A stretch of 32,000 nucleotides of DNA from assembly GCF_020181635.2 (NCBI RefSeq), contig NZ_JAYJJS010000018.1, forward strand, positions 74,061 to 106,060, read 5' to 3'. A program made the translations under genes and the position numbers. The first letter of the stretch is position 1, and each line of letters opens with the position of its first letter. The stretch is from [Mycobacterium] zoologicum (GTDB taxonomy: Bacteria > Actinomycetota > Actinomycetes > Mycobacteriales > Mycobacteriaceae). Shown one piece after another: positions 7,688 to 32,000 of this stretch. The notes under the pieces were generated by a model. The model was not told the origin of the DNA, made no database searches, and saw only the letters and a program-made list of their open reading frames with translations.

Positions 7688-7693
7688 GCCGTC

Positions 7694-11215: not shown

Positions 11216-11223
11216 GAGGCCTG

Positions 11224-17193: not shown

Positions 17194-17249
17194 CAGAACG
17201 ACCTCCTCATTGTGCGGACGTGTAACCCGGAACGGATAACGTAGATGGA

Positions 17250-17303
17250 AACATATATGAACAGATATGCCGAACGCAAGAGAAGGTGATAAAAACATAT
17301 ATG
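17250..17303. promoter_or_regulatory. AT-rich divergent promoter region with two copies of AACATATATG (palindromic core CATATATG)
   Basis: Copies lie at 17250-17259 and 17294-17303, 44 bp apart. The second forms the 10-bp palindrome acatatatgt. They sit in the most AT-rich stretch between whiB5 and the XRE gene. Confidence 0.5.
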
Positions 17304-17356
17304 TAACTAGTGAAGGGCCAGGCTGTGTACTATCCGGACATGGCCTGGGCGCAACG

Positions 17357-18127
17357 ATGAGCCGTGAGGCAGCGGGCGCGGCCATCCGGGCCCTGCGGGA
17401 GGCGCGCGACTGGTCGCTGGCAGACCTCGCCGCCGCCACCGGCGTCAGCATCATGGGCTTGAGCTACCTGGAGCGCGGAGCGCGCAAGGCTCACAAAAGC
17501 ACAGTTCAGAAGGTTGAGAATGGGCTCGGCCTGCCGCCGGGCACCTATTCTCGGCTGTTGATGGCCGACGATCCCGACGCCGAACTCGCCCAGTTGATGT
17601 CGGTCGCCGCACCTCCAGCGTCGTCTGCCAGGCCCGCCGGAGCGGTCGTCGTCGACCGCCACAGCGACACTGAAGTCCTGGAGGGATACGCCGAAGCGCA
17701 ACTCGACGCCCTGCGTTCGGTGATCGCCAGACTGCCTTCGGAAGCATCAGACGAATACGAGACGTATATTCTTTCCGTGATCGCGCAGTGCGTGACGGCG
17801 GAGATGTTGGCGGCCAGTTCCTGGCGGGTGGCCGTCAACGCCGGCGCCGGTCACGCGGACCGGCTCATGGCGCACCTGCAGGCGCTGGAAGTCACCCGCG
17901 CCGACCTGTTGGCCCGGATGCCCGCCAGCCTGACCAGCCGGTTCGACCAGGCGTGCACACGCTCGGCGCTGCCGGAACCGGTGATCGCCGGGTTGCTCGG
18001 CATCACCGTCGAGGAGATGTGGGACATCCGGAACACCGGCGTGATCCCGCCGGGAGCACTGGCCCGGGTGCGCGCGTTCGCCGACGCCGAAGCAACCGAC
18101 CGACACAACGAGGGGGCGCAACGGTGA
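17357..18127 (+). CDS. XRE-family helix-turn-helix transcriptional regulator (Rv0023-like)
   Basis: 256 aa starting MSREAAGAAIRALREARDWSLADLAAATGVSIMGLSYLERGARK (HTH_XRE). A second HTH-like segment lies near the C-terminus (LPEPVIAGLLGITVEEMWDIRN). The stop overlaps the next gene's GTG start. Confidence 0.82.
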   Translation: MSREAAGAAIRALREARDWSLADLAAATGVSIMGLSYLERGARKAHKSTVQKVENGLGLPPGTYSRLLMADDPDAELAQLMSVAAPPASSARPAGAVVVDRHSDTEVLEGYAEAQLDALRSVIARLPSEASDEYETYILSVIAQCVTAEMLAASSWRVAVNAGAGHADRLMAHLQALEVTRADLLARMPASLTSRFDQACTRSALPEPVIAGLLGITVEEMWDIRNTGVIPPGALARVRAFADAEATDRHNEGAQR

Positions 18128-18948
18128 ACAGTGAGCTGGACCTGCTGACCAGGGCCCACGCGCTCTTCGGCGCCGGGGGGCAGCCGGCGACGTTGGATGC
18201 CGGACTCGATCGCTATGCCGATCTGCTGGAACGGAACGCGAACAGCTACACCGGCCCGGCGCACGAGCGCTATCGGCAGACGGTAGGTGCCCAGCGGGCA
18301 CGGCTGTTGGCGAATGCGCGTACCGATGCGGCCGCAACGGCTGTGCTGGCCGCCGCGTTCGCCGACCATGCCCACGGCCGGCAGCAGACGGCAGGGGTAC
18401 TGGCCGCGGCGCGCGCCGACGGGCCGGCCGCCGACTCTCCGCTGGCGCAGCGGGAGGCCATGCGCCGGCGCGCGGCACGACTGCGAGCCCAACGTGCCCA
18501 CGTGCTCTCGGCACACCGGCGTGCCCGGGCGCACCGGGCCGGGTTGGCACGGCTGCGGTATCGCGGTGCGCGACGTCGTGTGGACCCGAATCGGTTGCGG
18601 CTGCCCAACACTCGCGCCGGGGCGGCGGTGCGTGCGGCGCTGTCGCGGATCGGCAGACCGTACGTCTGGGGTGCCACCGGGCCGGACCGATTCGACTGCT
18701 CGGGCCTGACCCAGTGGGCGTACCGCCAGGCCGGCGTACCGCTGTCGCGCACCACCTACACCCAGATCTACGACGGAATTCCGGTGGCGCGCTCCGAGAT
18801 TCGGCCAGGTGACCTGGTGTTCCCCAGCACCGGCCACGTCCAGATGGCGATCGGGAACAATCTGGTGGTCGAAGCCCCACACCCCGGTGCGGCGGTTCAG
18901 ATCAGCCCGCTGGGCGGATATGTCGCGATTCGGCGCCCGGTGTCCTGA
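18124..18948 (+). CDS. NlpC/P60 cysteine peptidoglycan endopeptidase with long helical N-terminal region (Rv0024-like)
   Basis: GTG start overlapping the XRE stop (GTGA). The C-terminal domain GRPYVWGATGPDRFDCSGLTQWAYRQAGV...PGDLVFPSTGHVQMAIGNN...EAPHPG carries the Cys and His catalytic residues. I see no N-terminal signal peptide. Confidence 0.82.
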   Translation: MNSELDLLTRAHALFGAGGQPATLDAGLDRYADLLERNANSYTGPAHERYRQTVGAQRARLLANARTDAAATAVLAAAFADHAHGRQQTAGVLAAARADGPAADSPLAQREAMRRRAARLRAQRAHVLSAHRRARAHRAGLARLRYRGARRRVDPNRLRLPNTRAGAAVRAALSRIGRPYVWGATGPDRFDCSGLTQWAYRQAGVPLSRTTYTQIYDGIPVARSEIRPGDLVFPSTGHVQMAIGNNLVVEAPHPGAAVQISPLGGYVAIRRPVS

Positions 18949-19026
18949 GGAGTCCACAGCCCCCGGTCGGGTGAATTGTCGGCGTCGCGTGCCCTGCGTA
19001 GTGTCACCGGCCATGGAGCGGTCAGC

Positions 19027-20373
19027 GTGACGACTCGCGACGACGTGTTGGACGTGATTCACCGGATCGAGACGGCCGGGAACGCGGGTGAGGCGACGCG
19101 TGCGGCACAGGCCGCCTTGACTCTGCCGCTGCCGTCGGCGGGTTATGACCGGGTACTGGATCAGCTGCGCACGGCGTATCCGCGAATCGTCGGCGCGGCA
19201 GCTACCGAGCAGCAGGGCGCCGCAGCACAGGCCATGAAGGAAGCTGAAGCGGAACTGCGCCAACAGCTCTCGGCAACAGCGGAATTCGACCGGCACATCC
19301 TAGAAGCGTTGCGTCACGCCGGCCAGAACACAGTGGAGGGCCGTCGCCGCCTCGACAACCTGGAGGCCGAGATCGTCGGCGCGGCGCGGGCGTGGGATCT
19401 GAGCACCGCGGCCGGGTCCCGCGAGTTCCAGCGTTACCTGATCGGCAAACTGGGCGAGATCATCCGGGTGGTCGCCGCAGCCGACGACGACGACACCGCC
19501 AAGCAGGAGCTGACGACCGCGCTCACGGCGTTGTACACCGACAACACCGGCCGCGATGAGTCATCACCGGCCGCGCAGCCCCCCGCGGGTGTCACCGACC
19601 CGGTGTTGATGCCCGATGTCCCGGCAAAGGCAGGTCCCGACGAGGAGGATCCCTGGCTCGACCCCGACCTGGACGACGCTTACCTCGACGACGAACTGGA
19701 GCCCGAACCCGGTCCTGCGGCCGCAGCGCACTACCAGCCCGGGATGCCGTCGATGCCCCCGAACTTCGGCGGCGAATCGCCGGGCTTCGGCGGAATGCCG
19801 GCGGGGATGTCGCCCGGTTTGCCGCTGGCCGGACTGGGCTCGGACCCGTTCGACGACATCGGTGACCAGGAGTACCCGAGAGAGACCGAGGCCGAAGACG
19901 CTGGGCCGGAGGACAAGGCTGACACGGACACCGCCGCCGACGCTGATGACGCCGGCGGACCCGCACCGGAGCCTCCGGCCGACGACGGGCCGGTGACCGT
20001 GCGGCTGCCGGACGGGCAGACCACTAGCGTCGCCGATCCGCAGCTGGCCGCAGCCATGCAGGCCGCCGCGGACGGCACGCCGGTGGCGGAGGCGTTCCGT
20101 CGGCAGGGGATCGCCATCCCGCCGCCGGGCACACCCGTGACCGCCCCCGTGGACCAGGCGCAACTTCAGCCCGGTGATATCGGGGTGTTCACCGACCGCC
20201 ATGCGCTCGCCGTGGGCGATGGCCGGGCCCTGCTCGACGGGCAGCTCCACCTGGCCGGCAACCTGCGGGGGCCCGGATTCCTGGGCTGGCAGCATCCCCC
20301 GATCCGCGCCGGCGGGCCGGCACCGGTCCCCGAACCCGTCCCTACACACACCGCCGGCTACCGGTGGGCTTGA
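19027..20373 (+). CDS. Large hypothetical protein (Rv0026-like): helical N-domain, acidic/Pro-rich linker, degenerate NlpC/P60-like C-domain
   Basis: The reading frame is open from TTG at 18976. I prefer the GTG at 19027 (VTTRDDVLDVIHRIE), which has GGAG about 11 nt upstream and gives 448 aa. See findings for the C-terminal similarity to the neighbouring NlpC/P60 domain. Confidence 0.7.
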   Translation: MTTRDDVLDVIHRIETAGNAGEATRAAQAALTLPLPSAGYDRVLDQLRTAYPRIVGAAATEQQGAAAQAMKEAEAELRQQLSATAEFDRHILEALRHAGQNTVEGRRRLDNLEAEIVGAARAWDLSTAAGSREFQRYLIGKLGEIIRVVAAADDDDTAKQELTTALTALYTDNTGRDESSPAAQPPAGVTDPVLMPDVPAKAGPDEEDPWLDPDLDDAYLDDELEPEPGPAAAAHYQPGMPSMPPNFGGESPGFGGMPAGMSPGLPLAGLGSDPFDDIGDQEYPRETEAEDAGPEDKADTDTAADADDAGGPAPEPPADDGPVTVRLPDGQTTSVADPQLAAAMQAAADGTPVAEAFRRQGIAIPPPGTPVTAPVDQAQLQPGDIGVFTDRHALAVGDGRALLDGQLHLAGNLRGPGFLGWQHPPIRAGGPAPVPEPVPTHTAGYRWA

Positions 20374-20419
20374 AAATCGCCGTCTCAACCGTCATCGTCG
20401 ACTAGCCAGGGAGGTAAAC

Positions 20420-20734
20420 ATGCCACAGGAGATCCACGTCAACAACGCCGTGCTCACCAAGGCGGCCGGAAACCACCAAGAGACGTCCGAATACCTGGCT
20501 ACCGTGTCGGCCTCCCACGAGGGCATCCGGGCGATGCTGAGCTCGCTCGGGCCGATCTACGGTGACCTGCGTCAGGCCGCGGACTCGATGCTCGACGCCC
20601 GCAAGGGCTGCTACGACAGCCAGGCAGGCGAGCATTCGGACGTGGCCGGCAACCTGCACGGCGCAGTGTCAACGTGGAACAAGCACGAAGACGACGCGGC
20701 CAGGTCCTTCCGGAACCTCACCGATGGGCGCTGA
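20420..20734 (+). CDS. Small helical protein of the EspC-like / type VII secretion target family (Rv0027-like)
   Basis: 104 aa starting MPQEIHVNNAVLTKAAGNHQETSEYL... A GGAGG sequence lies upstream. The length and the helix-turn-helix-hairpin style pattern resemble EspC/DUF2580-type proteins. This family call is by eye only. Confidence 0.6.
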   Translation: MPQEIHVNNAVLTKAAGNHQETSEYLATVSASHEGIRAMLSSLGPIYGDLRQAADSMLDARKGCYDSQAGEHSDVAGNLHGAVSTWNKHEDDAARSFRNLTDGR

Positions 20735-21048
20735 TGACTGAGCCGAATCCGGCATATGACACCGCGCATCCCAGCGGCGACGTGCTGTTCCGGTCCTGCC
20801 GCGGCGGTTATCTGCACAGCGTGGCGCTGAGCGAGACAGCCATGGGGGCCGACGTCTCTCGGCTGGCCGAGGCGATCGTGCTGACGGCCGAGGTGTCGTT
20901 CCTCAAGGCGGCGTTGGAGATCCGGGCCGACATGGTCACCACCGGGCACGCGCCCTCAGCTGCGGTGCCCACCAACGACGATCTTCGGGTGGCCACCGAG
21001 CGTCTGGTGGAACACCGACTGCACGGCGACCGGCACACCGGGCGTTAA
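20734..21048 (+). CDS. YbaB/EbfC-fold (EspL-like) small protein (Rv0028-like)
   Basis: 104 aa starting MTEPNPAYD. The start shares one nucleotide with the upstream stop (TGATG). The core GDVLFRSCRGGYLHSVALSETAMGADVSRLAEAIVLTAEVSF fits the YbaB-like pattern. Confidence 0.6.
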   Translation: MTEPNPAYDTAHPSGDVLFRSCRGGYLHSVALSETAMGADVSRLAEAIVLTAEVSFLKAALEIRADMVTTGHAPSAAVPTNDDLRVATERLVEHRLHGDRHTGR

Positions 21049-21285
21049 GTCACCCACTGCCCGGCGGCATCGGCCCTCGGTGCAATGCCGTCGGGTGCGT
21101 CGATCACCGTGTCACCGAACAGGTTTCGGGCGCGCTCCAGCAGCGCGAGCACTTCGCTCAGCGTTGCTTCACATCCCGTACCCGGGGACCCGACGTCGGC
21201 CATGAAATGCACGCTACCGACCTGCTGTGGGGCTGACAATTCACGACACACAGGGGTTGGGGATAGCCAACGGTACGCTTGCGCG

Positions 21286-22887
21286 GTGGCACTATTCGGT
21301 CGACGGTCGGCGCGCCAGCGCCTCCGGAGCGCGGCCCGGGAGTCGCTGACGATCCCGGCGTTCAGCGCTCCGGTCGACTGCAGTGCCTGGGTGCTCGGCG
21401 GACTGTGGCCCGCAGAGTTGGCGACGGTGACGCCGGCGACGGCTCAGCTGGCCGAGTACCTGGACGCCGATCTGCGGCGCATTGCAGATTCGGCGAACGA
21501 AAAGCTGCATGCGATCGGTCGATCGGGGCTGGCGGGTCAGGCGCGGCAGACCGCCGAGTCCAGAGTGATCAACGTGGCCAGGGCGTTCGCCGTACTTCGG
21601 GTGGAGTCGACGGTGCGCTATCTGCACAACGAGGCCCTGGAGTTTCGTCCGCAGTACGCCAGCCTGAATTCGGCCCCGCCCCCGGCGGCGGTGACCGAGC
21701 AGATCCCGGCCCCGGTAGAGCCGGAACCCGTCGCGGTGGAACTGCCTCGCCCGGTCGATCCGCCCCCGGAGGCCCCGAGACCCGCGGCCCGTCATCGGAT
21801 GCCGGAGCCGGTCGTGGTCGAGGCGCCGCCCGCACCGCTTCCCGAGCCCGAGTCCGAGCCCGCGCCGGTCCCGGAGGTGGCGGAGCCGGCTCCCGAGGTG
21901 CCGGTGGCGGAGGAGCCGGTTGTTGTGCCGCCGGTTGTTGTGGAGCCCGTGTTGGTGGAACCGGTGGTGGCGGAGCCAGTGGTGGAGCCACCGGTTGAGG
22001 TTGTGCTTCCGGTCGAGGTGGTACCAGTCGTCGAGGTGCCCGTCGTCGAGGTGCCGGTTGTGGTCCCGCCACCGGAGCCGGTGGTGGCCCTGCCGCCCCC
22101 GCCCGAGCCGGTTGTGGTCAGGCCGGAGTCTTCCGAGCCGACGGTTCTCATTCCGGTGGAGCCCGAACCGCCCGTCGTCGTCGCGGCCGAGCCCGAACCG
22201 CCCGTCGTACCCGCCACGCCACCCCCGGCCCCGCCGGCCGTGACCGAATCCGATGACCAGCGCCTGCAGCGCCTGCTGGCGTTCGTCGCGCGGCAGGAGC
22301 CCGGCCTGAGCTGGGCCGTCGGCAGCTTCGCCGACGGCAAGACCGTGCTGGTCACCGACTTGGCCCACGGCTGGATCCCGTCCGGGATCGAGCTGCCGGC
22401 CGAAGTGCACCTGCTCGGTCCCGGGCAACGAACCGGCACCGCGGCCGCCATGCTGGGCGACGCAACGGCGTCGGCCATTTACCACCCCGGCGATCGGCTG
22501 GGCTGGGCCAGCGACTTCGGCGTGACCGAAGCCTCGGTACAGCCTCGCGAACTGGACGCCGTCGACGACCTCGGCTGGCAGCTCAGTGAGGCCACCCACT
22601 GGCGTGACGGGCTGCCGCGGATGGCCAACACTCTGGTGAAGGCTGGTGCGACCGGCACCGGTGTGGCCGACGCTGAAATCGACTTACTGCGAGTGCATCT
22701 GGACACCGTGCGCTATCAGCTGCTCGCGCAGTATCCCGGCGCCGACGCCGCTCTGGTGCTCAACTGCATGCTGCTGGCCGCGACCGAGGGCATCGCCGCT
22801 GGCGATGGGGTCTCGGCCAACTACCACTACAGCTGGTTCCGTGCGCTCAGCGCTCCGCAGCCCAGCCAGTGGGACCCGCAGAAGTAA
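21286..22887 (+). CDS. Large Pro/Val/Glu-rich protein with conserved C-terminal domain (Rv0029-like)
   Basis: The frame is open from 21085. I favour the GTG at 21286 (VALFGRRSARQRL). Layout is a helical N-domain, then about 190 aa of PEPV/PVVE repeats, then a C-domain (LQRLLAFVARQEPGLSWAVG...VLVTDLAHGWIP). That C-domain is paralogous to the partial ORF at 31293-32000. The start codon is uncertain. Confidence 0.7.
   Translation: MALFGRRSARQRLRSAARESLTIPAFSAPVDCSAWVLGGLWPAELATVTPATAQLAEYLDADLRRIADSANEKLHAIGRSGLAGQARQTAESRVINVARAFAVLRVESTVRYLHNEALEFRPQYASLNSAPPPAAVTEQIPAPVEPEPVAVELPRPVDPPPEAPRPAARHRMPEPVVVEAPPAPLPEPESEPAPVPEVAEPAPEVPVAEEPVVVPPVVVEPVLVEPVVAEPVVEPPVEVVLPVEVVPVVEVPVVEVPVVVPPPEPVVALPPPPEPVVVRPESSEPTVLIPVEPEPPVVVAAEPEPPVVPATPPPAPPAVTESDDQRLQRLLAFVARQEPGLSWAVGSFADGKTVLVTDLAHGWIPSGIELPAEVHLLGPGQRTGTAAAMLGDATASAIYHPGDRLGWASDFGVTEASVQPRELDAVDDLGWQLSEATHWRDGLPRMANTLVKAGATGTGVADAEIDLLRVHLDTVRYQLLAQYPGADAALVLNCMLLAATEGIAAGDGVSANYHYSWFRALSAPQPSQWDPQK
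21670..22250. repeat. Low-complexity Pro/Glu/Val coding repeats (PEPV, PVVE, EPEPPVV units)
   Basis: Visible in both DNA and protein. For example, gagcccgaaccgcccgtcgt occurs twice about 30 bp apart near 22159 and 22189. VEVPVVEVPVVV and AEPEPPVV are both repeated. Confidence 0.8.
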
Positions 22888-22936
22888 GGCCGGCATTGAA
22901 TTGACGCTACTCACACGGGCTCGACATACTAAGTGA

Positions 22937-23245
22937 ATGTCGGGGCCGGACAGTCGCACGGAACTCAGCGACAGGGACCTCGTCGAGTCCGTGCTGCGGG
23001 ACCTGCGTGAGGCCGCGGAGAAGTGGGAAGCGCTCGTCGCGGAAGCCGAAAACACCACGTACAGCGTCGATCTGGGTGACGTGCGGGCGGTGGCCAATGC
23101 GGACGGGCGGCTGCTGGAGCTGACCCTGCACCCCTGTGTGGTCACCGATTACACCCACGGTGAGTTGGCGGATCGCCTCAACATGGTGTTCACCGCCCTG
23201 CGCGAAGAGGCGGTGGCCGACTTCGAAGCCCGGTACGGCAGCTAG
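22937..23245 (+). CDS. YbaB/EbfC-fold (EspL-like) small protein (Rv0030-like)
   Basis: 102 aa. YSVDLGDVRAVANADGRLLELTLHPCVVTDYTHGELADRLNMVFTALREEA fits the YbaB-like core. Confidence 0.6.
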   Translation: MSGPDSRTELSDRDLVESVLRDLREAAEKWEALVAEAENTTYSVDLGDVRAVANADGRLLELTLHPCVVTDYTHGELADRLNMVFTALREEAVADFEARYGS

Positions 23246-23254
23246 GAGTGATGC

Positions 23255-23278
23255 CGGTCGCGTCACACGCCGCGACCG
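23255..23278. terminator. GC-rich hairpin between convergent genes (possible bidirectional terminator)
   Basis: cggtcgcg-tcacacgc-cgcgaccg forms an 8-bp perfect stem with an 8-nt loop. There is no U-tract, which is common in mycobacteria. Confidence 0.4.
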
Positions 23279-23318
23279 TGGACTGACGCCTCCGGGTGCA
23301 CGCGAATGGGGCCGTTTC

Positions 23319-23720
23319 TCAGATGGAGATGATGTGGACGATGTCCTCAAGGCCGCGAAAATCGTTGGGGTTCCGGGTGTATAGCGGCAGGCCCGCAGCC
23401 AGCGCAGTCGCCGCGATGAGTAGGTCGACAGCGCGCCACCGGGGTTGGCGGCCGGCAGCGACACCGGCGGCGTAGATCCGTCCATACGCCCTCGCGCAGT
23501 CACCGTCGAACGGTAGCGGTTCCACCCAGGATTCGATCTGTTGCAGCCGATCTTGGCGGCGTGCACTTTCGGCCCGGTCGTCGGTCGCATGCGGGCCGGC
23601 GGAGAGCTCAGCCATGGTTACCGCGCTGACAGAAGCCCCTTCGGGGAGATCGGCCGGGACAACAACGTCCAGGTCGATGATGACCGAAGTGTCGAGCAGG
23701 CCGGTACCGGTATCAGCCAC
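23319..23720 (-). CDS. vapC: PIN-domain ribonuclease toxin VapC
   Basis: 133 aa. The conserved acidic residues lie in LLDTSVIIDL, MAELSAG, DLLIAATA and YTRNPNDF. The gene overlaps the upstream antitoxin gene by 8 nt. Confidence 0.88.
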   Translation of the reverse strand: MADTGTGLLDTSVIIDLDVVVPADLPEGASVSAVTMAELSAGPHATDDRAESARRQDRLQQIESWVEPLPFDGDCARAYGRIYAAGVAAGRQPRWRAVDLLIAATALAAGLPLYTRNPNDFRGLEDIVHIISI

Positions 23721-23967
23721 GCGGCGTGATGTCCTGATCGGCGTGGCTGTCGAGGTCCTTGCGGAACCGCGCGTACTCGATGCGCGGAGCGCCGCGGAAG
23801 GCCTCCGCCAGTGCCGGGCCGTTTACGACGTACCGCCGCCGCAGCGGGACCAGTTCCCCCACGGGCACGCCATTGCGGGTGACGACGAACGCTTCTCCTT
23901 CGTCGAGCTTGCGCATGATGTCACCGCTGCTGTTACGCAACTCGCGCTGGCTGATTTCCCGACTCAC
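23713..23967 (-). CDS. vapB: Phd/YefM-type antitoxin (VapB)
   Basis: 84 aa. MSREISQRELRNSSGDIMRKLDEGEAFVVTRNGVPVGELVPL is the typical Phd/YefM N-terminus. Confidence 0.85.
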   Translation of the reverse strand: MSREISQRELRNSSGDIMRKLDEGEAFVVTRNGVPVGELVPLRRRYVVNGPALAEAFRGAPRIEYARFRKDLDSHADQDITPRG

Positions 23968-23999
23968 TCCACGAGTGTAGCGCTGGTGCTACGGGGTGC

Positions 24000-25019: not shown

Positions 25020-25035
25020 CCGGCCATTATCGCGG

Positions 25036-26013
25036 TCAGGCGTCGGCCGGGAACCAGTAGTCCAGTGTCTGCTCGACCCCGCCCCAGTCGACGCCCAGCC
25101 AGTCGCCGAAGAAGCCTTCGATGTTGCCGAAGGCGCTGTAGACGAACGCCACGGCCGAGTAGAACAGGCCGTCCCACCAGGCGCTGTCGACCAGGCCGTG
25201 GCTCCAGGCGTTGACCCAGGCGCCGAACTGGTCGAAGTCCCCGGAGATGTCGATGTTGGTGATCATGCCGTCGGTGCTGGACGTGTGGTTGCCGACCTCG
25301 GCGGGGGACAGTCCCAGATACATCATGTGCTCGTAGAACAAGCCGAGCCCATCGGTGGAGGTGGGGTCGGTGACCGGGTCGCCGGGAATCGTGTAGTCGG
25401 TTACCGCGAACGCGTTCGTCGGGGTCTGGACGCCGTTCAGCAGAGCGGTGTCGAAGAAGTCGGGGGACGAGGCCCCGCCGCCGTCCAGCGACGCGGTATC
25501 CGCACCAACGGGATTGCCGATGAACACGAAGTGCAGAAGGTTCGGGTCGACGCCGTCGTGGGCCAGCTGCGCCATTGCGATCGAGCCGGCCGTCGCACCC
25601 TGCGACCAGCCGAACACCCACAGCGGGTGGTCGGCGTCGTAGGCGTCCGGGTTGGCGGCGAGTTGGGCGTGTACCTCGCGCACGATCTCGGCCGCCCCGA
25701 CGAAACTGCTGTGCCCCTGCTGGACCAGCGCCGGGGTGGACAGCAGCAGCAACGACCCGTCGCACCCGGCGGAACCGACCACGCATGCGGTCGGGTCGTC
25801 GCCGACGTCGAAACCCAAGGGGCGCAGGTACAGATCAGCCGCGGTCTCGGCGAACGTCGCCGACGGCGTCGACAGGATGGTCGGTCCGACGAAGATCGCG
25901 GTGTCGGCAAGCAGGTCGATATCGACGTACGCGGCGTGGACGGTGGGTGCGGCCAGGACGCTGCCGGCGACCGCACCGGCGATGGCCATCGGCGCGATCG
26001 CTCTGGTCAGCAT
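25036..26013 (-). CDS. Secreted stand-alone PE-PPE-domain serine hydrolase, copy 1
   Basis: I place the start at MLTRAIAPMAIAGAVAGSVLAAPTVHA, which is signal-peptide-like. The nucleophile elbow is FGWSQGA (GxSxG). The C-terminal part contains the PGDPV motif. It is near-identical in layout to the divergent neighbour. Confidence 0.8.
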   Translation of the reverse strand: MLTRAIAPMAIAGAVAGSVLAAPTVHAAYVDIDLLADTAIFVGPTILSTPSATFAETAADLYLRPLGFDVGDDPTACVVGSAGCDGSLLLLSTPALVQQGHSSFVGAAEIVREVHAQLAANPDAYDADHPLWVFGWSQGATAGSIAMAQLAHDGVDPNLLHFVFIGNPVGADTASLDGGGASSPDFFDTALLNGVQTPTNAFAVTDYTIPGDPVTDPTSTDGLGLFYEHMMYLGLSPAEVGNHTSSTDGMITNIDISGDFDQFGAWVNAWSHGLVDSAWWDGLFYSAVAFVYSAFGNIEGFFGDWLGVDWGGVEQTLDYWFPADA

Positions 26014-26181
26014 CCTGGGCCCCTCCACCCGCAAGCTAAAAATCACACGAATAAATCACAAGAGTGAGCTGAGGGCGATCATGGCAGGGACCTCCGTCGA
26101 AGTCAACGGATCATTGACTCTCGCAGGCAGAGAATGCCACTATTGCGTCTTCGGCCGTCTCTCGTCCTAGGAGCCTCCGCA

Positions 26182-27162
26182 ATGATCGCAACCCGAGCGT
26201 TGGCGCCGGTCGCCGCCGCGTTTACCGTCGCCGCCGGCGTCCTCGGAACGCCCGTCCTGCCGACCACCTGGACGCAGGTGGCGCTGCTGGCGGACACCGC
26301 GATCTTCGTCGGCGGCACCATGCTGTCCACGCCGTCGGCGACATTCGCGCAGACCGCGGCCGATCTGTACCTGAACCCGTTGGGTTTCGACGCCGGCGAC
26401 GACCCGACGGTGTGTGTGATCGGTTCCGGCGTCTGCGATTCCCCACTGCAGGTGTTGACCACCCCGGAACTGATCCTGCAGGGGCACAGCAGTTTTGTCG
26501 GCGCGGCGGAGATCGTGCGGACGGTGCAGGCCGAGCTCGCCGGGAACCCCGGTGTCTACGACGCCGAGCATCCGCTGTGGGTGTTCGGCTACTCGCAGGG
26601 TGCGACGGCCGCCTCGATCGCGATGGCGCAGCTGGCGCACGACGGTGTCGACCCGCGGGCTTTGCACTTCGTGTTCATCGGCGACCCGTCCGATGCGGAC
26701 GGCGTCAGCGCCACCAACCAGAGCGACACTCCATGGGACAGGCTTTTCGACATGCCGATACTGAACGGCAACCTGACCCCGAACGACGCGTTCCCGACGA
26801 CCATCTACACGTTCCCGGGCGACCCCGTCGCCGACGCCGCCTCCAATTCGATGCTCGGCCTGTTCTACGAGCACATGATGTACATGGGGCTCACGCCGGC
26901 GCAGGTTGCCGACCAGACGAAAACTGTCGACGGCATGATCACCAACGTCGATATCTCCGGGGACATCGATCAGTTCAGTGCCTGGATCAACTCGTTCGGA
27001 CACGGGTTGCTCGACAGCGCCTCGGTGGAAGCGCTCTTCAATTCGCTTGTGGCCCTTGTGTACAGCGCCTTCGGCAACATCGAGGGCTTCTTCACCGACT
27101 GGATGGGCATCGACTGGGGCGGGGTCGAGCAGACGCTGGACTACTGGTTCCCGGAGGCCTGA
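26182..27162 (+). CDS. Secreted stand-alone PE-PPE-domain serine hydrolase, copy 2
   Basis: I place the start at MIATRALAPVAAAFTVAAGVLG. The nucleophile elbow is FGYSQGA. The protein is collinear with copy 1 along its whole length. The C-terminus FGNIEGFFTDWMGIDWGGVEQTLDYWFPEA compares with FGNIEGFFGDWLGVDWGGVEQTLDYWFPADA in copy 1. Confidence 0.8.
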   Translation: MIATRALAPVAAAFTVAAGVLGTPVLPTTWTQVALLADTAIFVGGTMLSTPSATFAQTAADLYLNPLGFDAGDDPTVCVIGSGVCDSPLQVLTTPELILQGHSSFVGAAEIVRTVQAELAGNPGVYDAEHPLWVFGYSQGATAASIAMAQLAHDGVDPRALHFVFIGDPSDADGVSATNQSDTPWDRLFDMPILNGNLTPNDAFPTTIYTFPGDPVADAASNSMLGLFYEHMMYMGLTPAQVADQTKTVDGMITNVDISGDIDQFSAWINSFGHGLLDSASVEALFNSLVALVYSAFGNIEGFFTDWMGIDWGGVEQTLDYWFPEA

Positions 27163-27167
27163 CCGAA

Positions 27168-27190
27168 TCGCGCTAGTTGCGCTAGCGCGA
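27168..27190. promoter_or_regulatory. Palindrome upstream of the second vapBC operon (candidate operator)
   Basis: tcgcgctag-ttgcg-ctagcgcga has 9-bp arms and lies 20 nt upstream of the antitoxin ATG. It also contains the self-complementary gcgctagcgc. Confidence 0.45.
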
Positions 27191-27209
27191 ATCCTGGAAT
27201 CTCCCTACC

Positions 27210-27452
27210 ATGGCCTCCATGGAGACGATCAGCAGCACAGACGCCAAAAACCAGCTCAATCGGCTCTTGAACGACGTCAAATCCGGTGCTTCGTTCACCA
27301 TCACCAGCCACGGCAAGCCGGTTGCGCAACTGGTGCCAGTCGCGGCCGTCCCACGCAGATTTGGTCAGCTGCCAAGCGTCGCCGTTCCCGATGACTTCGA
27401 CGCCGCACTGCCGGCAGCAGAACTCGAGGCATGGGACGGGTCCCAGGGGTGA
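27210..27452 (+). CDS. vapB: Phd/YefM-type antitoxin
   Basis: 80 aa. METISSTDAKNQLNRLLNDVKSGASFTITSHGKPVAQLVP is the typical Phd/YefM fold signature. Confidence 0.85.
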   Translation: MASMETISSTDAKNQLNRLLNDVKSGASFTITSHGKPVAQLVPVAAVPRRFGQLPSVAVPDDFDAALPAAELEAWDGSQG

Positions 27453-27838
27453 ATGTCCTACTCGACACCCACGTACTGCTGCGGCTGGTCAGTAACCCCT
27501 CGAATCTGGCTCCCGAAACGCTCGCGATCTTGTCCGACCCCGGGACCGACCTGTGGGTGACGGCCGCGTCGGCCTGGGAGATCGCAACCAAGACCCGGTT
27601 GGGGCGCCTCGACGGTGCAGCGTTGTTGTCGACATGGACCGACGTCATGACCGACATGAGCTGTTCGGAACTGGCGATCGACTCCGCCGACGCGATCCTT
27701 GCCGGCCGACTTCCCTGGGAACACCGCGACCCGTTCGACCGGATCATCGTCGCCCAAGCGTTACGACGCAATCTCACCATCGCAACCCGTGATGCCAAGA
27801 TCATCGACGCGGCGATCACCCCGACCCTGACAGGGTGA
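27449..27838 (+). CDS. vapC: PIN-domain toxin VapC
   Basis: The GTG at 27449 overlaps the antitoxin stop (GTGA). An alternative in-frame ATG lies at 27431. The acidic residues lie in LLDTHVLL, SAWEIATK, DRIIVAQA and IATRDAKI. Confidence 0.85.
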   Translation: MNVLLDTHVLLRLVSNPSNLAPETLAILSDPGTDLWVTAASAWEIATKTRLGRLDGAALLSTWTDVMTDMSCSELAIDSADAILAGRLPWEHRDPFDRIIVAQALRRNLTIATRDAKIIDAAITPTLTG

Positions 27839-27897
27839 ATTGACGGTAAAAAGTTCGCCTGCCACGATCGCCGAAAGACGATCGAGGGGAGGTCGGG

Positions 27898-28212
27898 ATG
27901 TTCGTCGATCCGGCGATGCTGACGGCGGGTGCAGCCCATGCCCACACGGCGTCCGAGCACGCCCAAGCAGGCGCGAAGGAGCTGGATCAGCGCACGGTAA
28001 CGGCGGGAATCTTCGGGGGCTTCGGCGCGGCCGATGTCTTCCACCAGGCGATTTCGACCAGTCACGCCGAGCACGTCACCACGCTCAATGATCACCGCCG
28101 GACGCTGGCTGATGTCGGGGACAAGGCCCACCTCGCCCGGCGGGCGTTCCTCGGCATGGACCATGAAGCCGCGGCCCAACTGCGTGGGGTGCGGTGCAAC
28201 TCCAACATCTGA
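27898..28212 (+). CDS. Small all-helical EspC-like / type VII secretion target-like protein, candidate partner of the downstream toxin
   Basis: 104 aa starting MFVDPAMLTAGAAHAHTASEHAQAGAKEL... A GAGGGGAGG sequence lies upstream. Same size class and layout as the 20420 gene. Its 3' end overlaps the downstream GTG start by 19 nt. Confidence 0.6.
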   Translation: MFVDPAMLTAGAAHAHTASEHAQAGAKELDQRTVTAGIFGGFGAADVFHQAISTSHAEHVTTLNDHRRTLADVGDKAHLARRAFLGMDHEAAAQLRGVRCNSNI

Positions 28213-29690
28213 ATCTGCCGTGGCTCATCGAAGCCGCCGGCGGTGATCCGTGGCAGGTCAACAGCACCCTGCAAAGCGGCAATCCGGGCGTCGTCGACGA
28301 GCTGGCGCAGGCCTTCCACAACGCCGCTTTGTGTACGTCCGAGTCCAGTGCGGCGTTCACCGAGGCGGGGAAACGCTTCCGGGCCGCGTGGAACCGGGAG
28401 AACGGTGAACACCCGATCAACGACTCCCTGGAAGTTCAGCGCGCCACCCAAACCCTGCACCTGCAGCAGAACCAGCTCCTCGCGATTGGCACCGATCTGG
28501 AGAACATCGCCGCCGCGCTGGCTGAGGCTCAGCGCGACGCGGCGGACAAGATCGCCGCACTGGAGACGCAGCTGCAAAACATCGACGACCACATCGGCGT
28601 CTACCTCGACGCCGACGCCGACGTCTCGGACCTGGTGCAGATGGCTGCCGACGACACCGCCGGGATTCTGCATCAGATCGAAAAGATCCGCGACGACTAC
28701 GCCGCGACACTTCAAGCCGCAACGGCCAAGCTGTTGTCCGACGGCTACGACCCGGTGGCCCTGCACGGCTACGACGGCGACGGGCAGCCGACGCTGGACC
28801 AGCAGACCGACCGCGCCGCCGATGCCTACGGCACCACCCAGCGCGACCACGACCAGCAGCTGGTGGACGAGCCCGGCGAGATGACGCCGGAGAAGGCCGA
28901 AGCCGCTGCGCGCCTGCGCGATTACGCCACCGTCAGCGACCCCGCGGCCGATCCGGATGCCCGACGTCTCGCCGGTGAGCGCCTCGATGACTTCCGGATG
29001 GCTAATTTTGTTGGGCAGCTGCCGCCGGACATGGTGTTGGGCGGCGATGCCCGAAGCAACGCGGCCAATCGGTTGGACATGCAGCGCCGCCTGGAATCTG
29101 GAACCGTGCATCCCGATATCGCGCCGATGACTCCGGATCAGGCCACCCGAGCCCTCGACGAGGCTGAAACCGTCGCCCGCGCTTGGACACTCACCAGCTT
29201 CGCCGACCGACTTCGCAACAGCGGAGTGTCCCCGGGAGGCGTCACGCGGGCTGTCACCGCAATCAGGAACGGGATCCCGGCCAGGGAGTTCTTCGACCAG
29301 CTCTCGAACGCCTCCGGCAGCGTAGGCAAGGGACTGGCGAAATACGGAGAAGTATTATCTCCGGCGGATCACCGAATCAACCCGAGCGCGTACACCAAGG
29401 CCGACGCCGCGGCGTTGGCGAAATTCGGCAGGAATCTCGGCGGTGCGGCGACTGTACTGGACGGTGCACTAACCTTGATCGACGTGGTGAACGGCGATAT
29501 CTCGCCGAAGCAGGGTGTGGCGGAATTTGGTGGCCGTTGGGCAGGGGGTGCAGTAGGTGGATGGGGCGCGCTTGTTGCAATGTCCTTCTTGGTCGCACCG
29601 GAGATAGCCGTGCCCGTCGCAGTGGCCGGTGGCGTAATCGGCGGCTCCAAATTGGGTCAAACAGCCGTCGATAAACTGCTGGGATACTAA
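28194..29690 (+). CDS. Candidate polymorphic toxin: helical N-terminal (T7SS-targeting-like) region plus C-terminal double glycine-zipper hydrophobic hairpin
   Basis: 498 aa with a GTG start. The N-terminus reads NLPWLIEAAGGDPWQVNSTLQSGNPGVVDELAQAFHNA and is followed by coiled-coil-like helices. The last 60 aa or so read GGRWAGGAVGGWGALVAMSFLVAPEIAVPVAVAGGVIGGSKLGQ, with repeated GxxxG spacing. The function is inferred, not demonstrated. Confidence 0.55.
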   Translation: MQLQHLNLPWLIEAAGGDPWQVNSTLQSGNPGVVDELAQAFHNAALCTSESSAAFTEAGKRFRAAWNRENGEHPINDSLEVQRATQTLHLQQNQLLAIGTDLENIAAALAEAQRDAADKIAALETQLQNIDDHIGVYLDADADVSDLVQMAADDTAGILHQIEKIRDDYAATLQAATAKLLSDGYDPVALHGYDGDGQPTLDQQTDRAADAYGTTQRDHDQQLVDEPGEMTPEKAEAAARLRDYATVSDPAADPDARRLAGERLDDFRMANFVGQLPPDMVLGGDARSNAANRLDMQRRLESGTVHPDIAPMTPDQATRALDEAETVARAWTLTSFADRLRNSGVSPGGVTRAVTAIRNGIPAREFFDQLSNASGSVGKGLAKYGEVLSPADHRINPSAYTKADAAALAKFGRNLGGAATVLDGALTLIDVVNGDISPKQGVAEFGGRWAGGAVGGWGALVAMSFLVAPEIAVPVAVAGGVIGGSKLGQTAVDKLLGY

Positions 29691-29691
29691 C

Positions 29692-30333
29692 TTGAATTAT
29701 GCACTGATCATCGCAGGCGGTCTCTGCCTTTTCGCCGGTGGGCTGCTTGAGCATCTAAAGGTGCCGTTGACGACAAAGCGTCGCATGTACTGGTATCTGG
29801 CGGCACTGTCGGGGATACTTTGGTTCCTAGCGGGCTACCCCAATCTTGAGAATATGCTCGGTTTCCTCGCCATGGCATTGGTAATCCAGCTGGGATGGGC
29901 ATATGCCCACACGCCATATATTCGCATAAATGGCAAAATTTACGCGTTTGAATCAAAGTATGTAAACATCGAATCGGAAAATGGCCCGGACGAACTTCGG
30001 CGGCGCAATGAATTTACTACACCGACCAAGATGTGGTGGGTAGTTGCATTTTGGCCGATAGTGATTTGCGCCGCGATATGCAGTTCATTTCTGCCGGGCC
30101 GTGAAGGATTTAGTATTCACAACGACGGTGCGTGGATTCTCGGTTTGCTCGGATACTGCCTGTTCTTCGGAATCGTTGTGGGCCGAGGCGAGGCGAAGCT
30201 CGACCGCTCGATCGCGCAAGGACAATGGCCCCAGTTCATCATCGCGTCGATATGCTCAGCGGGTCTGTTCGCCGTGTTCTATCTGACGGCCTACCACGCG
30301 ACCATGCTGGTGAGGGAACGACGGGAAGACTGA
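29692..30333 (+). CDS. Polytopic (about 6 TM) membrane protein, candidate immunity protein
   Basis: 213 aa. The TTG start lies 1 nt after the toxin stop. An alternative in-frame ATG lies at codon 32. Hydrophobic segments are YALIIAGGLCLFAGGLL, YWYLAALSGILWFLAGY, MLGFLAMALVIQLGWAYA, MWWVVAFWPIVICAAICSSFL, AWILGLLGYCLFFGIVVG and FIIASICSAGLFAVFYLTAY. It uses many A/T-ending codons, unlike its neighbours. Confidence 0.6.
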   Translation: MNYALIIAGGLCLFAGGLLEHLKVPLTTKRRMYWYLAALSGILWFLAGYPNLENMLGFLAMALVIQLGWAYAHTPYIRINGKIYAFESKYVNIESENGPDELRRRNEFTTPTKMWWVVAFWPIVICAAICSSFLPGREGFSIHNDGAWILGLLGYCLFFGIVVGRGEAKLDRSIAQGQWPQFIIASICSAGLFAVFYLTAYHATMLVRERRED

Positions 30334-30357
30334 CTGGGCGCTGCCTTCCCAGCCGCC

Positions 30358-31296
30358 TTACTTCGACGAATCCTTCTTGTCCACAATGCGTTTCAGCGGC
30401 GTGATGCCGGGGTGGCTGGCGTCCTTGGTGGCGGACTTCGTCACCGGCACGTTCGGGGCGGCGGTGGTCCGACCCTTGACCGGTTGACCGTTGGGCATGC
30501 CGGGGGTCGTGATCCGCTTCGACTCGGTCGGTCCGTCTTTGCCGCCCTTGCCGCCGCCGCCCGCTCCGCCGGGCATCATCGGCATCATTCCGCCACCGCC
30601 GCCACCCGGTCCGGCCGCCCCACCTGGGGCGCCGGCCATTCCACCTTTGGCCATGGCGCTGGCCGGTGTTGTCGGTGTCGAGGTGCCCGGGACCGGTGGC
30701 GGGCCGAGATTGCTGGCCGGCGTGGTACCCATGCCGAGCCCGCCGCCGCTTCCCCCGGAGCCCGAGATTCCGGTCGATCCAAGATCCGGGTGGACGTTCG
30801 AGGCAAGTGTGGTGCCGCCGAGGCCGCCTTTGGCCAGCGACATCAGCGGCGACAGCGCACCCTGGCCGGCCTGCATCAAGCCCTGCGGCACTTTGCCCAC
30901 CGAGCCGAGCACGCCACTGAGAGCGCCGGTGACGCCTTGCAGCGCGCCGGTGACGCCCTGCATGGCGCCGCCCATCGCGTCCTGAGGTGCCTTTCCGGCC
31001 AGGGCGGCGTCGCCCTTGCCGGCGAGCTTCTCGAACTGCGACGCCGCGTCGGCCTCATGCTCACTGAACTTTCGCACCGCGTCTAACGCATGCCCGGTGC
31101 GGTCGGCGTGGTCCCCGGCGATGTCGGTGTTGGTCCCGGGGAGGTCGGCGTTGGTCGCGGCGCCGAATGCCGCAGCGTTGGCGTCGGTGGACGAGACGCC
31201 GCCAGTGTGGACGGGAGCAGGCGCAAGCGGAGTCGGAGGGGCGCTCATGCCGGTCTGCATGTATTTCTCAAGCTCGGCGATGACGTCGTTGGTCAT
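30358..31296 (-). CDS. Gly/Ala/Pro-rich low-complexity protein, possible ESX-associated substrate
   Basis: 312 aa. The helical N-part reads MTNDVIAELEKYMQTG...ALDAVRKFSEHEADAASQFEKLAG. QGVTGAL repeats follow. Gly runs and MMPMMPGGAGGGG recall the C-termini of PPE/Esp proteins. The start overlaps the upstream gene's stop (ATGA). Confidence 0.6.
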   Translation of the reverse strand: MTNDVIAELEKYMQTGMSAPPTPLAPAPVHTGGVSSTDANAAAFGAATNADLPGTNTDIAGDHADRTGHALDAVRKFSEHEADAASQFEKLAGKGDAALAGKAPQDAMGGAMQGVTGALQGVTGALSGVLGSVGKVPQGLMQAGQGALSPLMSLAKGGLGGTTLASNVHPDLGSTGISGSGGSGGGLGMGTTPASNLGPPPVPGTSTPTTPASAMAKGGMAGAPGGAAGPGGGGGGMMPMMPGGAGGGGKGGKDGPTESKRITTPGMPNGQPVKGRTTAAPNVPVTKSATKDASHPGITPLKRIVDKKDSSK

Positions 31297-32000
31297 GGCT
31301 TCAAACCTCCGTACCGCACCGTCACGGCCTGGTGCCAGGCCAGGTGGTAGCGGGCGAGTTCTTCACTTCCGTCGATCAGGGCGTCGACGGCCGCCAGCAG
31401 CATCCAGTCCGCGACGTCTTTGGGGGCGTGCGCCGGATATGCCGAGAGTACTCGTGTCCGCGTCGCATCGACCACCTGCTGGAACAGTTCGATTTCATTG
31501 TCGGCGGCACCGTATCGGCGGGACACGGCCTGCGCGACGGTCTGCACGATGCGCGGCAGACGCGAATTGGCTCCGACGGTGTCGATCAGCGTGGGGCCCA
31601 ATTCGTCGACGCGCTGGCCGTGGCGGGCGCGTTCCCCGGTACCGGGAATCGGGTCCTGCGGATCGGCGCCAGCGATGTAGGTGTTCGGCTGGTGGGAGGC
31701 CACGGCCACCACCGCACCCAGAAGGTCGACCGCGCTGGTGTCCCGGCGGCGCTGCGCGGGGCTGAGAAGGGTCACACCTGGTGGGAGTTTGACGGTGGGG
31801 GGAATCCAGCCGCCGGCCAGATCGGTGACCAACACGGTGGTGGACTCGTCGTCGCGCAATCCGGCGGCCCATGCCAGTCCCGGTTCCTGACGGGCGACGG
31901 CGTCAACTTTGCGCTGCAGATCCTGTTGCTCGGCAAGACGTTTGCCGGCAGTACCAGCGCCGGCCCCAGCCGTTCCGCCGGCCGCCGCGCTGCCGGCCAT
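31293..32000 (-). CDS. Rv0029-like C-terminal domain protein (paralog of 21286..22887); 5' end probably beyond the window
   Basis: VARQEPGLAWAAGLRDDESTTVLVTDLAGGWIPPTVKLPPGVTLLSPAQR aligns with the C-domain of the 21286 gene. The frame stays open to the window edge, so the apparent ATG at 32000 may be internal. Confidence 0.7.
   Translation of the reverse strand: MAGSAAAGGTAGAGAGTAGKRLAEQQDLQRKVDAVARQEPGLAWAAGLRDDESTTVLVTDLAGGWIPPTVKLPPGVTLLSPAQRRRDTSAVDLLGAVVAVASHQPNTYIAGADPQDPIPGTGERARHGQRVDELGPTLIDTVGANSRLPRIVQTVAQAVSRRYGAADNEIELFQQVVDATRTRVLSAYPAHAPKDVADWMLLAAVDALIDGSEELARYHLAWHQAVTVRYGGLKP

Follow-up and report, generated by a model that had tools for sequence, protein, structure and literature searches.

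Two gene modules of [Mycobacterium] zoologicum as probable accessory arms of sister ESX-2-type loci without a membrane core

Gene content of the two modules

The gene content of two modules from [Mycobacterium] zoologicum that are related to mycobacterial type VII secretion systems (T7SS; ESX systems) is compiled in Table 1. They are located in a stretch of 32,000 nucleotides (contig NZ_JAYJJS010000018.1, positions 74,061 to 106,060), which is designated the window in the following and has a guanine-plus-cytosine (GC) content of about 69%. Module A ranges from 17.36 to 23.25 kb with all genes on the plus strand, Module B from 27.9 to 32.0 kb with genes on both strands. The gene set is based on open reading frame (ORF) listings and on gene calling via the third-codon-position GC, which agree with each other. 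Together with Pfam they recovered all genes of the original prediction, which had been made from the sequence of the window, at the proposed positions and with the proposed families. The comparison with related loci suggests that each module is probably the accessory arm of one of two sister loci of the ESX-2 type.

The lack of an ESX core gene, an Esx or a PE/PPE gene in the window, as stated in the original prediction, is borne out by tblastn. The queries were all 13 proteins of the complete related locus L093 (see below) and EccB, EccC, PE and PPE of M. decipiens. A homologue of EccB, EccC, EccD, EccE, EccA, MycP, EspG, Esx, PE or PPE was not found in the window (E > 0.2), which does not qualify as a complete ESX locus with eccB, eccC, eccD, eccE, mycP, an Esx pair and a PE/PPE pair.

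Table 1. Positions, strands and family assignments of the features in the window
Feature	Position	Strand	Description	Support and remarks
TacA/GNAT	6912-7696		Toxin-antitoxin pair
WhiB gene	16777..17193	-	WhiB-family regulator, positional equivalent of whiB5	Pfam Whib; divergent from Module A
A1	17357..18127	+	XRE/HTH_3 regulator, Rv0023-like	Pfam HTH_3, E 3e-10; 4-nucleotide overlap with A2
A2	18124..18948	+	NlpC/P60 peptidoglycan endopeptidase with helical N-domain	Pfam NLPC_P60, E 4e-19
A3	18976..20373	+	DUF4226 N-domain, acidic/Pro-rich linker and conserved C-domain, Rv0026-like	Pfam DUF4226, E 8e-34
A4	20420..20734	+	EspC-like small helical protein	Pfam T7SS_ESX_EspC (PF10824), E 1e-15
A5	20734..21048	+	DUF2694 protein	Pfam DUF2694, E 2e-51
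A6	21286..22887	+	EspK/Rv3899c-type: conserved N-domain, Pro/Val/Glu repeat linker, C-terminal DUF5632 and DUF5631	Pfam
A7	22937..23245	+	DUF2710 small protein, YbaB-like	Pfam DUF2710, E 3e-58
VapC/Phd (Phd/PIN pair)	23319-23967	-	Filler	Pfam
CobW	24000-25019	-	CobW GTPase, filler	Pfam
Hydrolase 1	25036-26046	-	PE-PPE-domain hydrolase, filler	Pfam
Hydrolase 2	26134-27162	+	PE-PPE-domain hydrolase, filler	Pfam
Phd-VapC (Phd/PIN pair)	27210-27838	+	Filler	Pfam
B1	27898..28212	+	DUF2563 small helical protein	Pfam DUF2563, E 2e-27
B2	28194..29690	+	Hydro_N_hd (PPE-like) N-domain, conserved middle and variable C-terminal Gly-zipper segment	Pfam
B3	29692..30333	+	Multi-pass membrane protein	No Pfam match; GC 0.59, atypical codon usage
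B4	30358..31296	-	Gly-rich protein with EspC-like N-terminal helical region (FxxxE)	ATGA overlap with B5
B5	31293..32000	-	Rv3899c-type EspK-like; DUF5632, DUF5631 and part of the linker in the window	Pfam; cut by the window end

The layout proposed for Module B holds with respect to the genes, but the Gly-rich gene and the second C-domain gene are located on the minus strand and the latter runs off the window. The partial paralogy of the two modules was investigated by an all-against-all comparison (blastp, and hhalign on orthologue alignments), which revealed few links across them. Paralogy is evident for A6 and B5 (38% identity, E 2e-27), but no other clear pair is present in the window; the similarity between A4 and the N-terminus of B4 is weak (blastp E 2e-4, hhalign probability 50%), and the remaining links comprise relations among DUF4226 domains as well as weak ones between A4 and Esx and between the A2 N-domain and DUF4226.

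The C-domains of A6 and B5 match the Rv3899c fragment of PDB entry 5IMU with E-values of 5e-30 and 8e-72, and both pass the Pfam cut-offs of DUF5632 and DUF5631. According to PMC9811218, the chaperone domain of EspK is the C-terminal one, which binds EspB at the helical tip. The closest structural match to this domain is Rv3899c, the product of a gene adjacent to ESX-2, and the fold recurs in Rv0029 and Rv2082. The tripartite build of EspK recurs in A6, which is composed of an N-domain conserved in 86 orthologues, a linker of PV/PE repeats and the C-domain. B5 shares this type of build with its Pro/Ala/Gly-rich N-part and C-domain, and its full length is at least 470 amino acids according to identical contigs. 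By sequence, A6 and B5 are EspK/Rv3899c-type proteins and putative chaperones. Tandem repeats in the linker add about 150 residues to A6 (533 amino acids) relative to the orthologues of other genera, which have 360-385 amino acids. Tandem repeats of 15, 21 and 30 nucleotides at positions 21864-22055 of the window encode the PV/PE repeats.

A4 belongs to the EspC family, with 58.1 bits versus a gathering cut-off of 23.5 and a match to profile positions 1-98 of 100. It harbors a WxxxE motif near the C-terminus that is conserved across 77 orthologues, and its stop codon overlaps the start of A5 (TGATG). An EspC-like small protein had also been proposed for Module B. This protein is B1, which is assigned to DUF2563 (Table 1), and its EspC match is weak and below the cut-off (E 0.0065, 17.3 bits). 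It carries a conserved FxxxD, and A4, B1, the B4 N-terminus and the Esx of the locus have in common an aromatic-xxx-D/E motif close to where the helical region ends; the PE control exhibits YxxxE. Two YbaB-like proteins had furthermore been assigned to Module A. This classification is supported for A7 by weak matches of all 10 tested DUF2710 family members to YbaB_DNA_bd (best E 4.5e-5, all below the cut-off), but not for A5: none of 10 DUF2694 members matches YbaB_DNA_bd, a PDB-profile match was not obtained, and the low-confidence single-sequence model has no fold match.

The DUF4226 domain appears to be a modular N-domain. It occurs alone in proteins of about 120 amino acids, together with an acidic linker and a C-domain in A3, and in combination with DUF6973 in a 356-amino-acid protein of M. 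algericus; the hhalign probability between the A3 domain and the equivalents in the small proteins and the DUF6973 combination is 100%. The small DUF4226 gene, which most other genera carry 5' of A3, is lacking in the window and in nearly all Mycolicibacter loci. PDB sequences contain no match to A3. Its C-domain (19966-20373, consensus ...L.PGDIG.FTDRHALALG...) resembles by eye the C-terminal half of NlpC/P60 without the catalytic Cys region, with no profile support. A partial RipC-like match is the sole NCBIfam result for A2, whose N-domain shows a weak similarity to DUF4226 (hhalign probability 46%, E 2e-4). The A2-like protein encoded 5' of eccB in M. spongiae likewise matches DUF4226 weakly, and DUF4226 is the annotation of its counterpart on the plasmid.

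Linkage of Module A to an A-type ESX core

A scan of species-representative genomes with an alignment of the A6-type C-domain resulted in 479 relatives, from which 80 loci were kept; Mycobacterium tuberculosis is not among these 80. The nearest relative by this domain is [Mycobacterium] vasticus (98% identity). Mapping by tblastn uncovered a near-universal gene order: WhiB (minus strand), XRE, NlpC/P60, the small DUF4226 gene where present, DUF4226, EspC-like, DUF2694, EspK-like and DUF2710. In nearly all related loci the WhiB gene adjoins the XRE gene. Outside Mycolicibacter, the sequence 3' of DUF2710 is long enough in 48 loci; EccB is located at most 2.5 kb after DUF2710 in 42 of them, with EccC, PE and PPE behind it as far as the retained sequence extends. 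The proposal that the modules are ESX-associated and orphaned from their core is supported.

The complete locus L093, a metagenome-assembled contig, comprises Module A, SLT, EccB, EccC, PE, PPE, two Esx, EspG, a CbiA-domain gene, EccD, MycP, EccE and EccA. Its order is regarded as ESX-2-like on the basis of the extra gene between espG and eccD, a trait of ESX-2 in M. tuberculosis. M. aichiense exhibits a partial arm (EspK-like, DUF2710) and then a complete core. A truncated core of only eccB-eccC-PE-PPE follows Module A in M. decipiens, M. kubicae and Mycobacterium sp. Z3061. Its 3' neighbor is a Ser/Thr kinase gene in M. decipiens; the genes at this position in the other two strains are presumably Rv0036c-Rv0041-like, and M. 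tuberculosis presumably has no ESX at the respective site. The truncated ESX loci of these slow growers are located after the Rv0030-like gene at L007 11484-18704, L091 8489-15679 and L094 8502-15636. In the 144-kb plasmid of M. paragordonae, genes for DUF5631, DUF4226, a "type VII secretion target", DUF2694, DUF2710 and DUF4226 lie directly 5' of eccB. The A-type core is absent from all 20 Mycolicibacter loci, which retain Module A.

In a comparison with PDB sequences the A-type EccB reached 287 bits with EccB5, 254 with EccB3 and 190 with EccB1, which places it by sequence outside the ESX-1, ESX-3 and ESX-5 types and excludes those three only. Among the best 120 relatives of the A-type EccC, all of them at least 81% identical, an EccC of M. 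tuberculosis is not present. The "ESX-6" of the literature is a partial duplication of ESX-1 in M. marinum and unrelated.

The regulators at the 5' end of Module A are known from M. tuberculosis. Rv0023 binds the upstream region of whiB5, and WhiB5 regulates esx-2 and esx-4 according to Casonato et al. 2012 as cited there (PMC7020754), which fits the physical linkage of Module A to ESX cores. The neighborhood is the origin-proximal region of mycobacterial chromosomes: the 5' flank carries PbpA, RodA, the PP2C phosphatase PstP, FhaB and FhaA (Pfam), and unrelated metabolic genes, a pirin gene and the WhiB-family gene on the minus strand are located between the fhaA flank and Module A.

Linkage of Module B to a sister core

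A metagenome scan was made with the B5-type domains. Many of the contigs harbor, in this order, DUF2563, Hydro_N_hd, a 157-amino-acid protein, EspK-like, Gly-rich, DUF2710, A2-like, SLT, EccB, EccC, PE and PPE, and in B-type arms the B4 gene is located between the EspK-like gene and DUF2710/eccB. M. spongiae contains a triad of DUF2563, Hydro_N_hd and a membrane protein together with a WXG100 pair between pcnA and eccB-eccC. On the map of M. tuberculosis, this site is the position of ESX-2 and the place of the cpnT operon. The Mycolicibacter-like Mycobacterium sp. SMC-15 (L152) exhibits the order Esx, Esx, PPE, PE, EccC, EccB (minus strand), DUF4226, PknH_C, B1, B2, B3 (plus strand) and B4, B5 (minus strand), i.e. 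the layout of Module B in the window with the core still attached. Its EccB and EccC share 72-75% identity with those of the B-type contigs and M. spongiae, 59-63% with the A-type cores and 46-52% with the plasmid system. In these comparisons the core proteins form two clades, A-type and B-type. A split of the M. tuberculosis ESX-2 and Rv0023-Rv0030 loci by an origin-spanning inversion was dropped as an explanation once the two core clades were seen. On a replicon of M. lentiflavum, an IS110 element and a VapBC pair are the neighbors of a gene for a DUF5631-type protein (L089 14802-16058).

Loss of the core between the modules

In most Mycolicibacter loci EccA, EccE, MycP, EccD, CbiA, EspG, Esx and PPE are located right after DUF2710 on the opposite strand. 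The DUF2710 gene of M. algericus and M. longobardus is followed by an in-frame eccB(N)::eccA(C) fusion ORF, which consists of the first 35 (M. algericus) or 14 (M. longobardus) codons of eccB and the last 183 codons of eccA with the same eccA junction; a DUF4226 gene, B4 and B5 follow on its 3' side. This fusion represents a deletion scar. At this site neither core genes nor a scar are present in the window and in [M.] vasticus, and the core is retained in [M.] crassicus and [M.] nativiensis, which come next in A6 identity. The absence of the core from the window hence has a concrete cause, because relatives with core and scar document a deletion: judging from these sequence comparisons, the B-type core was recently deleted from between the modules in this lineage.

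The fusion ORFs are located on the minus strand at L014 11023-11718 and L015 11034-11627. In M. algericus the DUF4226+DUF6973 protein is encoded between scar and B4 (L014 11791-12861), and a 202-amino-acid DUF4226 protein and PknH_C occupy this position in SMC-15. The site of the lost core in the window (23319..27838) is filled with the toxin-antitoxin, CobW and hydrolase genes of Table 1. The two PE-PPE-domain hydrolases are divergently oriented and 67% identical, and the presence of one copy in [M.] vasticus is indicative of a recent inverted duplication. Three toxin-antitoxin pairs are present in the 32 kb (Table 1). The Phd-VapC pair is located just 5' of B1-B2, and the same linkage to a DUF2563/Hydro_N_hd pair was observed in the distant metagenome contig L123.

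Retention of the orphaned genes

The ratio of non-synonymous to synonymous substitutions (dN/dS) was calculated with the Nei-Gojobori method for the window versus [M.] vasticus, which are both core-less. It amounts to 0.15 for A1, 0.20 for A2, 0.47 for A3, 0.23 for A4, 0.14 for A5, 0.10 for A6 and about 0 for A7, and in Module B to 0.20 for B1, 0.38 for B2, 0.36 for B4 and 0.17 for B5; B3 is too diverged for the calculation. Flanking and filler genes range from 0.06 to 0.26, and the module values versus M. longobardus are similar. The translational couplings A1/A2, A4/A5 (TGATG), B1/B2 (19 nucleotides) and B5/B4 (ATGA) are intact, and the B1/B2 overlap is also kept in L005, L095, L096 and L152. 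Both modules are under purifying selection. The low dN/dS together with the conserved couplings argues for a continued function.

The B1-B2-B3 cassette

Conserved members of the B2 family, with about 500 amino acids and about 45% identity, occur in many mycobacteria. B2 was modelled with AlphaFold2 from a 61-sequence alignment; the model is confident at residues 1-182 and 200-345, with a predicted local distance difference test score of 80-97 for the N-domain. The top Foldseek results are PPE41, PPE15 and PPE4, which are matched over their whole length with a target-normalised template modelling score of 0.57-0.71. This likeness of the modelled fold and the overlapping upstream gene of about 100 codons suggest that B1 and B2 form a PE/PPE-like pair. 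A search with B2 against PDB sequences gave no match.

Residues 1-300 of B2 are 85% identical to the equivalent of [M.] vasticus, residues 331-498 only 24%, whereas the C-part of the window is 59-65% identical to that of more distant strains. The adjacent B3 varies in parallel. Its counterparts are 51-55% identical within a C-terminal type and 23-30% across types, and B3 of the window shares 51% with a 213-amino-acid protein of SMC-15 and 23% with the [M.] vasticus counterpart. An abrupt C-terminal divergence between close relatives and a co-varying downstream gene, which characterize polymorphic toxins, are thus both present. Low GC and weak codon bias mark the segment in which the window and [M.] vasticus differ. 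Between 29100 and 30333, which covers the last third of the B2 gene and the complete B3 gene, the GC content drops to 0.59 and a third-codon-position GC signal is no longer discernible. The variable region of B2 includes a hydrophobic glycine-zipper segment at residues 449-485, and T7SSb toxins with glycine-zipper C-termini and polytopic immunity proteins are known (PMC7456083, PMC12744356). In M. helvum (L006 9705-16025) tandem DUF2563/Hydro_N_hd cassettes (505 and 453 amino acids) were observed, each followed by small non-Pfam ORFs, in a region without ESX genes.

The sequence variation suggests that B2 and B3 are a candidate toxin/immunity-like pair, with B3 as a candidate immunity or partner protein. 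In its extended form this explanation describes B1-B2-B3 as an ESX-2-type effector cassette, in which a PE/PPE-like dimer would export a membrane-permeabilising C-domain, B3 would confer immunity and another ESX would be used after the loss of the core; we consider it rather doubtful. If it were true, the cassette would represent a polymorphic, membrane-active toxin family that is tied to ESX-2 and outlives the loss of its own core. A serious rival is a role as PE/PPE-like envelope channel or membrane-anchored effector with B3 as inner-membrane assembly partner and without any toxin or immunity function, which is conceivable, if tentative. It is consistent with the PPE-like model of the N-domain and with the conservation of the ~500-amino-acid architecture among mycobacteria. 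Moreover, the C-region is almost confined to the B2 family instead of being shuffled: the C-domain was not seen on other trafficking domains or toxin scaffolds, as nearly all of the 42 matching representative clusters are C-ends or fragments of the same family with about 450-550 amino acids, and B2 has no match in 50,697 phage records. The C-region matches neither Pfam nor PDB entries and has no known toxin fold. However, the abrupt drop of identity between close relatives, the parallel swap of the downstream membrane protein, the local drop of GC over the swapped part and the tandem cassettes in M. helvum are hallmarks of toxin/immunity diversification, which speak against a channel or anchor.

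Origin and function of the modules

In our view it is probable that each module is the accessory (esp-like) arm of one of two sister T7SS loci of the ESX-2 type and that both were left without membrane core. Module A and the whiB5-like gene would represent the conserved 5' arm of the A-type locus, which appears intact in many environmental mycobacteria and reduced to eccB-eccC-PE-PPE in some slow growers, and whose core would be gone from the whole Mycolicibacter clade. Module B would belong to a B-type core as its 5' arm, with the core deleted here and replaced by toxin-antitoxin, CobW and hydrolase genes. The arms are predicted to encode substrate-like helical proteins, i.e. A4, the DUF4226 proteins, the B1-B2 pair and B4. 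EspK-type A6 and B5 may present substrates for export, aided by the YbaB-like adaptor A7 and the cell-wall hydrolase A2, B2 and B3 could function as membrane-active effector and cognate membrane partner, and the arms would be under XRE/WhiB5 control. The espACD operon works in trans for ESX-1, and by analogy both arms may now be served by another ESX encoded elsewhere.

Three alternatives to orphaned accessory arms have to be weighed. The original prediction of Module B as a diverged duplicate of Module A with a recently acquired toxin cassette is consistent with the paralogy of A6 and B5, the DUF2710, A2-like and DUF4226 genes of the canonical B-type arm and the atypical GC of the B2 C-terminus and B3. 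However, the paralogy is one of whole ESX loci with distinct core clades, so that Module B is instead the 5' arm of a sister core. The cassette itself is an old component of this arm, because DUF2563/Hydro_N_hd precede eccB in many lineages including M. spongiae, and a recent exchange appears to be confined to the C-part of B2 and to B3. A duplication is accordingly quite improbable. Even less credence is given to the modules as inert relics that decay after the loss of the machine. The core is indeed gone, the highest dN/dS values are found in A3, B2 and B4 (0.36-0.47) and the small DUF4226 gene is missing in nearly all Mycolicibacter loci, but the ORFs are intact, the couplings are kept and dN/dS is well below 1 throughout, with 0-0.23 for A1, A2, A4-A7, B1 and B5 as in flanking and filler genes. 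The retention of Module A in all 20 Mycolicibacter loci without A-type core is equally difficult to reconcile with decay.

The modules might also be independent of T7SS, for example in a WhiB5/XRE-controlled cell-wall remodelling by NlpC/P60 with cytoplasmic helical or chaperone-like proteins, so that the ESX linkage reflects co-regulation only. This scenario is unlikely. The tight conservation of the gene order 5' of eccB in two core clades and a plasmid ESX contradicts it, as do the EspC score of A4 above the Pfam cut-off, the homology of A6 and B5 to Rv3899c with a fold like that of the EspK chaperone and the lack of an apparent Sec signal in the A2 sequence by eye. Some observations would nevertheless fit. 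The B5/B1/B2 cluster of M. senuensis is located far from any ESX core, and plasmid pCBMA213_3 (L153, 21.6 kb), which has no annotated ESX genes, encodes a DUF5631 protein at 9240-11378; such core-distant cases count against orphaned ESX-2-type arms as well, as the proteins may work without a dedicated core. Rv0023 overexpression alters the NADH/NAD+ balance, not secretion (PMC7020754). There is no recognizable T7SS fold in DUF2694 and DUF4226. Further reservations concern the orphaned arms only. The PPE likeness of B2 has non-significant Foldseek E-values (0.3-0.8), with probabilities of 0.57-1.0 (1.0 for the three best) and E-values of 0.3-2.4 over the top results, and the Pfam models PE, PPE and WXG100 match neither B1 nor B2 (PE/PPE at E <= 0.01). 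Part of the divergence behind the dN/dS values may predate the loss of the core, and the assignment of the B-type clade to ESX-2 of M. tuberculosis is suggested by the synteny in M. spongiae and the gene order of M. tuberculosis, not by a comparison of M. tuberculosis sequences.

Comparison with known systems

ESX-2 is among the least understood mycobacterial T7SS. Earlier publications cover the single families, the control of esx-2 by WhiB5 and the similarity of the Rv0029 and Rv2082 folds to EspK. In the searchable literature we found no description of the two blocks as arms of two sister ESX-2-type loci, and none of the core-loss series or of a PPE-like, C-terminally variable Hydro_N_hd cassette. 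The current analysis ties two uncharacterised blocks (Rv0023-Rv0030-like; DUF2563/Hydro_N_hd/EspK-like) to ESX-2-type cores. It provides a natural series from the complete via the truncated locus to the scar and finally to nothing, and it points to putative substrates and chaperones as well as to a candidate membrane-active effector. Strains that keep or lack the core in nature would offer a ready-made comparison of export.

The correspondence of Module A to the whiB5-Rv0023-Rv0030 block of M. tuberculosis, as originally proposed, is supported. Both share the location 3' of pbpA-rodA-pstP-fhaB-fhaA and the gene order, as seen in M. decipiens and M. kubicae, where the block is located next to whiB, rather than from a comparison with H37Rv sequences. 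The published layout of Rv0023, Rv0024 and whiB5 (PMC7020754) and the fold of Rv0029 (PMC9811218) agree with Module A, and the window differs by the missing small DUF4226 gene and the longer A6 linker. The 5' flank of ESX-2 in M. tuberculosis (Rv3896c-Rv3899c) is comparable to Module B: B5 matches the Rv3899c fragment, and B-type arms have A2-like/DUF4226 and SLT genes before eccB. Rv2078-Rv2083 presumably combines DUF2563, Hydro_N_hd and DUF5631/2 proteins. The Hydro_N_hd protein of M. tuberculosis has an alpha/beta-hydrolase C-domain; B2 instead has a Gly-zipper membrane segment.

EspL and EspD of ESX-1 are YbaB-like. The modules share with espK-espL-espB and espACD the Pro-rich EspK-like proteins (A6, B5), the YbaB-like A7 and the EspC-family protein A4, and like espACD they are clusters away from any core machine. 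The partners of the ESX-1 esp genes are EspA and EspB, whereas DUF4226, DUF2694, DUF2563 and Hydro_N_hd are found here; the modules furthermore appear to be ESX-2-type arms orphaned by deletion of the core and not the result of a duplication of accessory genes.

The cpnT operon (esxF-esxE-cpnT-ift) likewise encodes a two-domain exported protein and a cognate downstream gene (PMC8593097), a layout that the candidate pair B2/B3 shares. Sequence similarity between CpnT/TNT and B2 was not detected, the C-domain of CpnT is a NAD+ glycohydrolase in contrast to the membrane segment of B2, and CpnT is exported by ESX-4 (ESX-5 in another study), not by ESX-2. Membrane permeabilisation is given as the first reported function of ESX-2 in PMC8593097, which identifies no substrate of this system. 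The LXG toxins of the Staphylococcus aureus T7SSb, TspA/TsaI and EsxX, differ from the candidate toxin/immunity-like cassette in several respects, as B2 lacks LXG and has a PPE-like N-domain, its host is a diderm mycobacterium with a T7SSa-type system, and its C-domain is not shared with other toxin families. They nevertheless have in common a helical N-domain, a small helical partner encoded upstream, a C-terminal glycine zipper, a polytopic membrane protein encoded on the 3' side and the variation of the C-part.

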